From the NCBI GenBank assembly GCA_050950825.1, contig JBMNIH010000003.1:32001-96000 (forward strand): a stretch of 64,000 bases of DNA, read 5' to 3'. This document shows positions 15,339-18,158 of the stretch, piece after piece. Source of the stretch: Clostridia bacterium (GTDB lineage: Bacteria; Bacillota; Clostridia; JAAYHZ01). The notes beneath the pieces were generated by a model. It made no database searches. It had not been told where the DNA came from and saw only the letters and a program-made list of their open reading frames with translations. The translations under genes were made by a program, and so were the position numbers. Each line of letters opens with the position of its first letter. Within the stretch, counting starts at the first letter, position 1.

Positions 15339-15755
15339 TTAGACATCAGGAATATCTTTTATTTCCGGAACCAGACTTGTTATAAAATTTCTAATCGCTT
15401 CTGCACATTCTATGGCTTGTTTTGCATCCTCTTCGTTTAACACTATCCCCAAAGGATATCTTGGCTCTACGCCGTAGGCTGTTAATTCCGAACATTGATC
15501 GGCTATATTATCAAAGCTTGATTCGATTTCTCTACATATTCGGTATAAGTGATCTAAATCATGGGTTTTTTCCGGTGTTATTCCATAAAAAACGAGATAT
15601 CCCTTAAGGTACTTTTCAGCCGATTGTTGACAATGGTAACACACATTTGATATTTGCATCTTACCAAGAACACTAAATAAAGTTTGAGCACATATCAAGT
15701 CTCTATAAGCAATCTGCCACCATTCTTGCGTAAGATCTTTATTATCACTAACCAT
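15339..15755 (-). CDS. HEPN-domain protein (toxin of an MNT-HEPN pair)
   Basis: W..IAYRDL, CYHCQQSAEKYLKG, KTHDL, EPRYP. Its ATG at 15755 overlaps the end of the MNT gene. Confidence 0.9.
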   Translation of the reverse strand: MVSDNKDLTQEWWQIAYRDLICAQTLFSVLGKMQISNVCYHCQQSAEKYLKGYLVFYGITPEKTHDLDHLYRICREIESSFDNIADQCSELTAYGVEPRYPLGIVLNEEDAKQAIECAEAIRNFITSLVPEIKDIPDV

Positions 15756-16083
15756 ATAATAACTTTCCATCCTTAATAACTTGTTGTTCGATAGTAGGGT
15801 ATGTTGTTCGCCGATAAAAATTATTTTCTTTGCTAACAATTATATCTACAGGCTTTGTTTTTTTATCTCTTATTGCTTTACGGATTTTCTTCATTACGTC
15901 TATTTCTCTAATCTCTATGTTATCAGATATAATTATATACAAATCAATATCTGAATCATCACGGTTAGTACCTTTAGCATATGAACCAAAAAGAAAAATT
16001 TTTCTTACCGGAACAGTATTTATAATCGTTTCTGTTAACAAATTCAATTGCTTCGATAAATCATCATGTGTTCTTTTAACCAT
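15748..16083 (-). CDS. Minimal nucleotidyltransferase (MNT) antitoxin
   Basis: IFLFGSYAKG....SDIDL...PVDIIV...G.LLYG. Confidence 0.92.
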   Translation of the reverse strand: MVKRTHDDLSKQLNLLTETIINTVPVRKIFLFGSYAKGTNRDDSDIDLYIIISDNIEIREIDVMKKIRKAIRDKKTKPVDIIVSKENNFYRRTTYPTIEQQVIKDGKLLYG

Positions 16084-16139
16084 ATTAACATCACATTCCT
16101 TTCGCTGTGCTCAAGGCACAAAATAGAATGAAAAATTTT

Positions 16140-16330
16140 TACTTAAGCCACCCTCTGTAGTAAAATATAAGTGGGTATGCAGGTATACTACAGAGCACGG
16201 GGAGGTGAGTGTGACAACCAAACTTTGAGTTGTCCGTATATTAACATGTGCCGTTCGCTCTCTCAAGTACAAATAAGTGTGCCATCGAGCACGAACACTA
16301 ATCTTTGTTTTAAACAAAGCTCTTGTTTAT
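16140..16330 (+). ncRNA. Putative IS110 bridge RNA (boundaries approximate)
   Basis: 10-bp stem 16153-16162/16186-16195. An internal loop closed by ACGG/CCGT and GACAAC/GTTGTC has sides GGAGGTG (16201-16207) and ATATTAACA (16238-16246) that match the two target flanks. A second loop carries ACACTAA, matching the element's right end. Confidence 0.65.
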
Positions 16331-16383
16331 ATTGAGTGGACAGTCAATGCCTGCATCCCTAAATATTTACAAGGGTGAGGTTG

Positions 16384-17649
16384 ATGCTTAAGATTGTCTA
16401 TCCCATCTGTTGTGGAATTGATGTCCACAAAAAGTTTGTAATTGCCACTATTGCCACCACCAATGATAAAAATGTTACTTCCTATCAAACACGTCGTTTT
16501 AATACTTTCAAAAATGATCTAATCGCTCTCAACAACTGGTTAGTAGAAAACAAGTGCAAAGATGTCTGTATGGAATCCACCGGAAAGTACTGGATTCCTG
16601 TTTTTAACGTGCTCGAGGATTTCTGCACTATTACCCTTGCAAACCCGAGATACGTTAAAAATATCCCAGGTAAGAAAACCGATAAGCGAGATTCAATTTG
16701 GCTTGCTGACTTACACAAGCATGCATTGGTAAAAGGTAGCTTTATCCCATCTAAGCCTATACGGGAGTTGCGGGATTTAATTCGGTACAAGTCTAAACTT
16801 ACCAACGTCTCTTCCAGTGAGAAAAACCGGGTGCAAAATTCGCTTACAGTTTCAAACATCATGCTTGCCAATGTTGTTTCCGACACCTTCGGCAAGTCTG
16901 CTTCCTCAATTATTAAGCACATGATAGAGAATCCTGATATCATCGACTTTGATTATTCTTCAATGCTCCACAAAAGTCTGAAGAAAAAATCGGATGAAAT
17001 TGAACAAGCCGTTGCTGGTAAATTCTCTAAGGAGCAAGCGGCAAAATTGTCTGTATGCTATGAGCACTATAACAGCGTTGAAAAATGCATCGAAATACTG
17101 GAAGCTACAATACTCGAGCTATCTTTACCTTTCAAAGAACAAATTGACATCATCGCTACTTTACCTGGTATTAAGCAGGCATCGGCTACAGCTATTCTTT
17201 CAGAAATCGGAACCGATATGTCCGTCTTCACCTCGGACAAGCATCTTTGTTCCTGGGCTGGCCTTACACCCCAGAGTAATGAAAGTGCCGGTAAGAAGAA
17301 AAGTGTCCGTATTAGCCGCGCCGGTGTCTACATTAAACCTTTACTTGTCCAGTGTGCTAATGCCGCTGTAAAGGACAAGTCCTGCACTGTTTTCAAAAAC
17401 CGCTATGAAGCGATTAAAAAACGTCGTGGTCACAAACGTGCTATTATTGCTACCGCAAGAATGATTTTAACCTGCATCTATCACATGCTCTCTAAAAATG
17501 AGCCATTCAATCCATTGCTGTATGATGACAATGCGAAATCTAAGAAGCGTAATCAGCAGGATTCTCTAAGTATTGAGCAGGCCATCGCATTTTTGCAAGC
17601 CAATGGGTATACTGTGAATATTTCTGATCTAGTGGCAATAACAAACTAA
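16384..17649 (+). CDS. IS110-family DEDD transposase/recombinase
   Basis: CGIDVHK, MESTGKYW, PGKKTDKRDSIWLA, LPGI...ILSEIG, SWAGLTP..NESAGK, KRAIIATAR. Confidence 0.96.
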   Translation: MLKIVYPICCGIDVHKKFVIATIATTNDKNVTSYQTRRFNTFKNDLIALNNWLVENKCKDVCMESTGKYWIPVFNVLEDFCTITLANPRYVKNIPGKKTDKRDSIWLADLHKHALVKGSFIPSKPIRELRDLIRYKSKLTNVSSSEKNRVQNSLTVSNIMLANVVSDTFGKSASSIIKHMIENPDIIDFDYSSMLHKSLKKKSDEIEQAVAGKFSKEQAAKLSVCYEHYNSVEKCIEILEATILELSLPFKEQIDIIATLPGIKQASATAILSEIGTDMSVFTSDKHLCSWAGLTPQSNESAGKKKSVRISRAGVYIKPLLVQCANAAVKDKSCTVFKNRYEAIKKRRGHKRAIIATARMILTCIYHMLSKNEPFNPLLYDDNAKSKKRNQQDSLSIEQAIAFLQANGYTVNISDLVAITN

Positions 17650-18158
17650 TAGTGTAATTCCAGTTTCATCCACAGTCCTAGGTATTCCTTAAGGGCTTGC
17701 TTTGTTGCGGCCTTCGCGGGTCTTTTTTATTTTCACACTAACACCTCCTCGTTATAAGATTCTTTGACCGAAAATATGTTATTATCATTGCTACTTTTAT
17801 ATTCGCTTCTTTTTGTCCGCTCTACCCGGCCGGTGGACAAGTTGCCATTCTTGGCTACAGATTTTTAATTGATATTTCCTTAGCCCTGTTTCATAATAAT
17901 CTCGGAAAGTATTGTAAAATATACCTACCGCCTATTCTTATATTAATTATACCATAAACAAAAGTTTACAGCTCGATTCTTTACTAAAAACATCCAATAA
18001 TAAACATTCCTACAACTTATTATTTATGTTTTTATTTATTTACAGTTGCTGAAATTTTAAAACTATCAAGTGAAAATTCATTAAAGATTTAATAAAATTA
18101 TTACTTTGATAAACCGACTTATTAGTAAATAATTACATAGTACTATATAAATTCCATT

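Follow-up and report, generated by a model that had tools for sequence, protein, structure and literature searches.

A predicted bridge RNA in the left end of an IS110-family element that would guide insertion between Shine-Dalgarno sequence and start codon

Bridge recombinases are under development as programmable genome-writing tools, and to our knowledge almost all that is understood of their mechanism comes from IS621 and a few relatives. In the window, by which we mean the whole 64,000-nt stretch of clostridial DNA analysed here, an insertion sequence parts the start codon of a host gene from its Shine-Dalgarno (SD) sequence, raising the question of how such a site comes to be chosen. The original prediction held that a bridge-RNA-like loop in the non-coding left end of the element is programmed against this site, and that the element may systematically target translation-initiation regions. 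We consider it highly probable that a bridge (seek) RNA, predicted to be ~190 nt long, is encoded in the left non-coding end and guides insertion between SD and ATG.

The element and its insertion site

The element occupies 16088..17740 on the plus strand (1653 bp, including one copy of a TA core), and its only ORF, at 16384..17649 (+), encodes a 421-aa transposase or bridge recombinase that matches the Pfam families DEDD_Tnp_IS110 (PF01548, 9.8e-21) and Transposase_20 (PF02371, 7.4e-18); the NCBIfam model NF033542 ("IS110 family RNA-guided transposase") is matched as well, with 239 bits where the cut-off lies at 140. Residues D13, E64, D100, D103 and S301 were invariant in an alignment of 8 sequences; the catalytic residues of IS621 are given as D11, E60, D102, D105 and S241 in the available text of PMC11208158. 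The protein thus combines the DEDD domain and the serine-bearing Tnp domain of the IS110 family, with a putative assignment of the catalytic serine, and 16088-17740 is an IS110-family element of an active-looking kind. Its non-coding DNA amounts to 296 nt upstream of the transposase gene versus 91 nt downstream, and a terminator-like hairpin with a T run lies at its right end (17705..17729, +). No terminal inverted repeat of the element appeared among the 25 inverted pairs of a repeat search.

Three copies of the element, 100% identical to each other, are present in its own genome. All three share CCATATTAACA on the left side, and on the right side CACACTAA is followed by CACCTCC in the window, AACCTCC in the C10 copy and CCACTTC in the C7 copy. 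Because TAACA is present at both junctions of the window copy, the end of the element was uncertain by 5 nt; this repeat is partly a chance property of the site, and the remaining two copies share only TAA or TAAC. Among public contigs placed on 15700-17900, one from run X15, an RNA library that possibly also contains DNA, fuses 16085 with 17739 and lacks the 1653 bp, with 5 letters fitting both sides. This empty site therefore defines the element as 16088-17740, with a single shared copy of the core counted, and identifies the flanking sequence as host DNA outside the element; within the TAACA ambiguity, the site carries no duplication beyond the shared TA. Before insertion it read CCATAT-TAACA-CCTCC, that is, GGAGG, 7 nt and ATGG on the minus strand.

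Comparison of the junctions placed the crossover in the window at the dinucleotide TA (16086-87 and 17739-40) and not at the CA core originally claimed; the three copies, together with relatives such as L034 and L017, ruled out both CA and AA, with TA or TT at guide positions 6-7 fitting best. Elsewhere among the relatives the core is TT or, in the L009/L013 lineage, AT in the target guide versus TT in the donor guide. No back-joint of a circle junction occurred in the public assembled contigs of four runs, and inspection across the joined right end, TA and left end found no convincing −35/−10 pair that could serve as a junction promoter. A hybrid TTCACA-N17-TAAGAT (17732-17760) was rejected in this role because it rests on flank letters particular to the window copy. 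Contigs from digester metagenomes (X11, X13 and X16), with loose ends at 16085, 16094 and 16179, carry the same left end beside other flanks, and some of their variants diverge upstream of 16179, which points to more insertion sites and to related elements with a common RNA body.

The target is a minus-strand operon (15339..16083), delineated by ORFs and Pfam matches, that comprises an MNT nucleotidyltransferase gene (15748-16083), matching Polbeta/NTP_transf_2, and a HEPN gene (15339-15839). The left half of the target site, at 16081..16087, consists of CAT, which is the minus-strand ATG of the MNT gene, followed by AT and the core TA, as located from the start of the MNT ORF and from the copies. 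The second core TA (17739-40) and the right half of the target, ACACCTCC, lie at 17739..17748 and read GGAGGTGT on the minus strand, which is the SD of the MNT gene, now parted from its ATG. Within the first 15 nt past the right core, 8 contiguous nt are held in common with a motif that we take to represent the 3′ tail of 16S rRNA, making this an anti-SD-like flank. The gene set severed from its SD by the insertion is a HEPN/MNT pair, the typical make-up of a toxin-antitoxin module.

The genome of the element still offers ~20 free sites of the form [C/T]ATATTA-N0-6-CCTC. The C7 copy (L002; G000 contig C7, 21903-23553) interrupts an ORF that, with the element taken out in silico, stays open over 206 codons, and at its insertion site the left half matches perfectly and the right half only partially. 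As a look-alike site within an ORF was used by this copy, the choice of site is made by sequence and not by gene function.

Predicted RNA and its guide strands

The proposed bridge RNA body spans 16173..16359 (+) and is closed by a stem, P1, in which 16173-16183 pairs with 16350-16359. The non-coding left end could be aligned across relatives whose recombinases are 45-66% identical, and in 22 sequences all 7 of the counted P1 pairs showed changes on both sides, with a covariation score of 0.393, compared with 0.205 in shuffles and reached by 0 of 500 of them; the repeat search also recovered P1, as inverted pair I3. Alignability, P1 and the hairpins described below together suggest a conserved structured RNA in the long non-coding end. 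Assembled contigs from RNA libraries span the region, contigs being silent on strand and transcript ends.

Upstream of this body, a promoter scan gave TTTACT-N17-TAAAAT (16138..16166, +), with 9 of 12 consensus matches, as the likelier promoter, and missed the TTCGCT-N17-TAGAAT that had been proposed before. The TAAAAT of this candidate aligns with a TATAAT conserved in relatives, and the candidate stops 7 nt short of P1, with a predicted start near 16173, where the RNA likely begins; the count of such promoter-like sites in the region was not above that in shuffles. A perfect 10-bp inverted repeat, I14 (CTCTGTAGTA/TACTACAGAG, 16153-16162 and 16186-16195), lies partly over the likely −10 and is in competition with P1; relatives do not retain its 5′ arm.

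RNAalifold on a MAFFT alignment returned a weak consensus beyond P1 (−8.57 kcal/mol), and per-sequence constrained folds were therefore used instead. In those of 22 relatives, loop 2 was ambiguous, and loop 1 mostly adopted the same layout, comprising an outer stem GCAC/GUGY, a 5′ strand, a hairpin whose sequence differs between relatives and a 3′ strand. In the window, this putative target-binding module occupies 16195..16251 (+), with GCAC (16195-98) and GUGC (16248-51) forming the outer stem, the 5′ strand at 16199-16212, the hairpin at 16213-16234 and the 3′ strand at 16235-16247. The original prediction had correctly located ACGG (16197-16200) and CCGT (16251-16254), as well as the inner GACAAC (16213-16218) and GTTGTC (16229-16234), but an outer stem of ACGG with CCGT is not kept in relatives, and GCAC/GUGC is the likelier stem, given a compensatory double change from C-G to U-A in L023 (CG in 21 sequences, UA in 1).

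The two strands of loop 1 resemble the two sides of the insertion. The 5′ strand contains an SD-like guide segment (16200..16208, +), in which GGAGGTG at 16201-16207 faces CACCTCC of the right flank at 17742-17748, both where they had been reported, and which the repeat search found as inverted pair I15 (16197-16207 with 17742-17752; 11 nt, 91% complementarity). The 3′ strand contains the guide TATATTAACAT (16237..16247, +), which repeats, in this order, the left flank, the core TA (16242-43) and the 4 nt with which the left end begins. Here, too, the reported identity of ATATTAACA at 16238-16246 with the left flank at 16082-16090 was recovered independently, as direct repeat D12 (ATATTAACAT, 16082-16091 and 16238-16247; 10 nt, 100%). 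Past the core, the 3′ strand runs on into 2-4 bases that repeat the start of the left end, which in the window are ACAT, and this extension is handshake-like. A corresponding handshake for the 5′ strand, with AGTGTGA (16208-16214) against TCACACT of the right end (I5), was dismissed as coincidence, since relatives with different right ends all carry the GAGTG linker unchanged.

When 16100-16374 was shuffled 2000 times (dinucleotide-type), a direct match of at least 10 nt to the 20-nt left junction arose 5 times, a reverse-complement match of at least 7 nt to the core and right flank 184 times, which is not significant alone, and the two jointly once. With the SD-side match weak in the window alone, the case rests on the relatives and on the empty-site contig.

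Loop 2, the candidate donor loop, has a 5′ strand AAGTACAAATAAGTG (16265..16279, +), which is conserved and varies little among the parsed relatives, and a 3′ guide strand AACACTAATC (16294..16303, +), which joins the last bases of the right end, the core TA (16299-16300) and the first base of the left end and so matches the circle junction; the ACACTAA at 16295-16301 had been rightly placed and rightly assigned to the right end of the element. In each lineage, the loop-2 3′ strand (N5, core, ATC) equals the last right-end bases plus core, the states being CACAC-TA, CAGAT-TT, CAAAC-TA, CAAAC-TT, CAGAC-TT and CAACC-TT. Searching with the 5-mer of each guide itself located a fitting right end in 29/29 loci, and the sites found coincide with a conserved TTTTCA-N3-CTW block of an alignment made independently, as well as with the ends of several contigs. 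For the loop-2 5′ strand AAGYACAAAYRAGTG, inspection across relatives found no consistent complement in either element end, and a donor pairing AGUG(UG)/CA(CA)TT, possible over 4-6 bp, was set aside, its bases being invariant. The same strand has a same-sense look-alike further upstream (16111-16129 versus 16263-16279, CTCAAGGCACAAAATAGAATG versus CTCAAGTACAAATAAGTG), and both are conserved.

Guides, flanks and gene starts among relatives

Scanning a single genome of each species yielded 44 loci whose recombinases are 37-70% identical over the best segment; they lie in Bacillota and Mycoplasmatota-type genomes and MAGs. Loop 1 was parsed through its conserved linkers, CACG-N9-GTG ... CCG-[C/T]AT-N6-AT-GTG, in 29 of 45 sequences (45-66% identical), the others lying on contigs that end early or being more divergent (L014, L033 and L037). 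The left-end motif CATTCCTTT was recognisable in 26 of the 29 parsed loci, which we refer to as anchored.

The loop-1 3′ strand ([C/T]AT-N6-AT) matched its own left junction over 6-11 contiguous nt in 26/26 anchored loci, in one and the same orientation relative to CAT. The four nucleotides that follow CAT took 14 states across these loci (TTTT, AATT, AATA, ACTA, AAAT, ATAT, TTAT, GTTT, CTTT, ATTT, TATT, AGTT, ATTA and TTTA), with guide and flank changing together. The longest common run averaged 8.0 nt, with a minimum of 6, in the 23 unique pairs of a guide and its own flank, versus a mean of 4.19 nt in 492 mismatched pairs, 10.4% of which reached 6. Four close kin (L007, L009, L011 and L012) carry different guides, each in a site that fits its guide, which amounts to natural reprogramming. 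In L017 and L034, which are probably decayed copies, the recombinase frames contain 1 and 7 stop codons, respectively, and the guides still match their own flanks.

The loop-1 5′ strand is near-invariant, so that a covariation test is impossible for it. It is SD-like, GGAGGTGA or close to it, in 29/29 parsed loci, with GGAGG in 19/29 and GAGGTGA, AAGGTGA, GGGGTGA, GGGTTGA or GGAGATGA in the other 10. Loop 1 thus resembles a target loop with two strands directed at opposite DNA strands, covariation being shown for the 3′ strand only. Taken together, a 3′ strand that tracks the left flank at every anchored locus and through all 14 states, and a 5′ strand that is SD-like in every parsed locus, support the original reading of a bridge-RNA-like loop, including the covariation of guide and flank that such a reading entails.

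If there were no guide RNA, the flank-like internal copies would be chance matches or end remnants in an ordinary 5′ leader. Such an account fits the folding of the single sequence, which is only modestly better than that of shuffles (z = −2.0), and an Rfam scan of 15900-18000, which gave no family and four unrelated matches (E 0.06-8.9) far below gathering scores. However, guide and flank covary at 26/26 independent sites, the loop-2 strand covaries with the right end, P1 covaries, and the empty site shows the flank to be host DNA; the account is already disfavoured, and we give it next to no credence.

A second alternative accepts the RNA and lets its SD-like segment work at the RNA level rather than on DNA, through pairing with the 3′ end of 16S rRNA or through control of transposase translation, given that GGAGGTGA is a perfect SD on the same strand, ~180 nt upstream of the transposase start. 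Yet neither a start codon nor a conserved ORF follows GGAGGTGA at SD spacing, the segment lies in an internal loop and faces the strand that covaries with the flank, and the SD complement in the right flank would be left unexplained. We consider this role very improbable, and return to the reading in which both strands of loop 1 address DNA.

At the position of the guide's first triplet, the flank reads CAT in 26/26 loci, placing ATG on the other strand. The guide itself reads TAT in 10 elements, that of the window included, with the flank still CAT, and the U of such guides would stand opposite the bottom-strand G as a wobble. Where the flank extended over at least 150 nt, this ATG opened an ORF of at least 50 aa in 17 of 19 loci, the other two ORFs being 48 and 45 aa long, versus 24.7% of 497 control CATs. 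Pfam matches with E of at most 1e-5, most of them starting at profile position 1-5, were obtained for 14 of 18 such ORFs (including that of the C10 copy), and the targets identified include enolase, a GyrB-type ATPase, Mfd-like, MutS (MutS_I), XseB (Exonuc_VII_S), Fe-hydrogenase, GFO/IDH/MocA (GFO_IDH_MocA), MFS and DUF6807 proteins. On the right side, at least 5 contiguous nt of the 16S 3′-tail motif occurred within 15 nt in 21 of 22 loci, versus 12.7% of controls, which were random 15-mers from the same loci, and at least 6 nt in 12 of 22, versus 2.6%. The insertions thus lie 5 nt upstream of true start codons with the SD complement on the opposite side, which supports the original suggestion that translation-initiation regions are targeted systematically.

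Six of the relatives (L004, L020, L021, L023, L024 and L036) are inserted 5 nt before the ATG of housekeeping genes, encoding enolase, Mfd-like, XseB, GyrB-type, Fe-hydrogenase and MutS proteins. The conserved left end carries GAAAGGAATG on its minus strand, 12-13 nt ahead of the host ATG, and this sequence might act as a substitute SD.

Whether the 5′ strand contributes to this choice can be questioned, as the true guides could be the 3′ strands only, with the SD-like 5′ strand structural or protein-binding and the SD complement of the flank caused otherwise, by survival bias of insertions or by protein recognition of the SD region. On inspection, the register between 5′ strand and SD complement shifts by about −2 to +2 nt between loci, and some right flanks (L012, L025 and L008) match the strand poorly, so that simple contiguous pairing beside the core, as with the right target guide (RTG) of IS621, does not describe it; the strand is invariant and hence without covariation, its 7-nt match in the window does not by itself reach significance, and the right target guide proper of IS621 is 4 nt in the available text of PMC11208158. 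Against this, a left guide of 7-9 nt would mostly hit CATs that are not starts, about a quarter of the control CATs opening an ORF versus 17/19 at the insertions, 21/22 right flanks are anti-SD-like versus 12.7% of controls, and the conserved strand is exactly SD-like in 29/29 parsed elements. In addition, some similarity persists in the right half of the off-target C7 site. Guidance by the 3′ strands only seems to us unlikely, and we retain a target loop in which both strands take part.

Proposed mechanism and comparison with known systems

We propose that the RNA is produced from the left end and bound by the recombinase, and that loop 1 acts as its target loop. The 3′ strand of this loop has left-flank polarity and would base-pair with (C)ATAT and the core TA on the bottom strand and then, as a handshake, with the first bases of the left end, and the 5′ strand would presumably pair with the SD complement of the right flank. 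Loop 2 would serve as the donor loop, its 3′ strand being in the sense of the right end and core TA. The DEDD and serine recombinase, by its presumed chemistry, would then exchange strands at the TA core, so that the element comes to lie between SD and start codon, 5 nt upstream of the ATG and always antiparallel to the target gene. Across the whole clade, the SD strand and CAT are fixed and only the ~4-6 nt between CAT and core are reprogrammed, so that each lineage would address a subset of gene starts.

Insertion between SD and ATG uncouples a gene from its translation signal with the coding sequence untouched; if the left end does provide a substitute ribosome-binding site, insertions before the enolase, GyrB-type, Mfd-like and MutS genes would be tolerable. 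The clade amounts to a natural series of reprogrammed guides paired with their targets, and it widens the design space by a swapped guide order, a long, fixed and register-tolerant strand and a TA/TT core. It also offers an RNA-based account for IS110 elements, IS900 included, that land between ribosome-binding site and start codon.

That IS110/IS1111 elements choose their targets through a guide RNA is established in the available texts of PMC11208160, PMC11208158 and PMC11187229, so that RNA-guided IS110 elements, like the aiming of IS900 at translation-initiation signals, are already known. New here are the half-fixed guide and the occurrence of an IS1111-type guide order in elements whose non-coding region lies upstream.

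Like IS621 of E. coli, as described in the available texts of PMC11208160 and PMC11208158, the present element has an IS110-type DEDD and Ser recombinase, non-coding DNA located upstream of the gene, an internal loop each for target and donor, a predicted RNA length of ~180-190 nt, target guide strands that pair with different DNA strands around a 2-nt core, and handshake bases after the core. In IS621, the left target guide (LTG), which pairs with the bottom strand, lies 5′ of the RTG, which pairs with the top strand, whereas here the top-strand complement (16200-16208) lies 5′ and the flank-sense strand with its handshake (16237-16247) 3′, so that the guide order is not that of IS621. The core is CT and the target REP-like in IS621, compared with a core of TA, TT or AT and an SD-ATG target here; the present loop has a long, fixed 5′ strand of variable register, a junction promoter was not recognised, the two RNAs have no match at the sequence level, and the present one has none in Rfam. 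Read from the other DNA strand, the pairing geometry would be that of IS621 with the cassette of RNA and recombinase inverted relative to the crossover frame.

According to the available text of PMC11187229, the IS110-type seekRNA of ISEc21 has the same guide order as IS621, whereas IS1111-type seekRNAs have the top-strand complement first and a non-coding region downstream of tnp. The present clade mixes these features, with an upstream non-coding region and an IS1111-type order, "top strand" being mapped from the text of that paper, and with its non-coding region upstream of tnp it falls outside the IS1111 subgroup. The repeat search found no subterminal inverted repeat between the element ends. 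Natural reprogramming among relatives is a likeness to the IS1111-type ISEc11, ISKpn4 and ISPa11 and to ISEc21 in the same text. A further Firmicute IS110 element, CazIS110-1 of Caloranaerobacter azorensis, has an experimentally confirmed bridge RNA of ~170 nt whose loops are said to base-pair with the junctions LT-RD and LD-RT (bioRxiv 10.1101/2025.10.25.684509), as the 3′ strands match the junctions here; SD or start-codon targets, unlike here, are unmentioned in the available text of that preprint.

IS900 of Mycobacterium avium subsp. paratuberculosis, a member of the IS110 family, has the target motif CATGNNNNNNTCTCCTT in the available text of PMC8141618, in which CAT and CTCC are separated by 8 nt, and the site in the window has equal spacing (CAT-ATTAACAC-CTCC). 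The title of Doran et al. 1997, cited there, states that IS900 targets translation initiation signals. IS900 differs in its actinobacterial host, the comparison being made through the published motif, and in a long antisense ORF (hed) that the same text describes as using host signals, whereas no hed-like antisense ORF spans the present element, in which the longest antisense ORF is 152 aa. A literature search for IS110 elements that target SD sequences or start codons, with supplementary target catalogues outside its scope, found only the work on IS900, and no RNA-guide account of the preference of IS900 was found in the literature searched. We suggest, tentatively and as a possibility that we ourselves rather doubt, that this Firmicute/Tenericute clade represents a third IS110-type layout, with a target loop half hard-wired to SD and ATG, and that the same logic explains the site preference of IS900.
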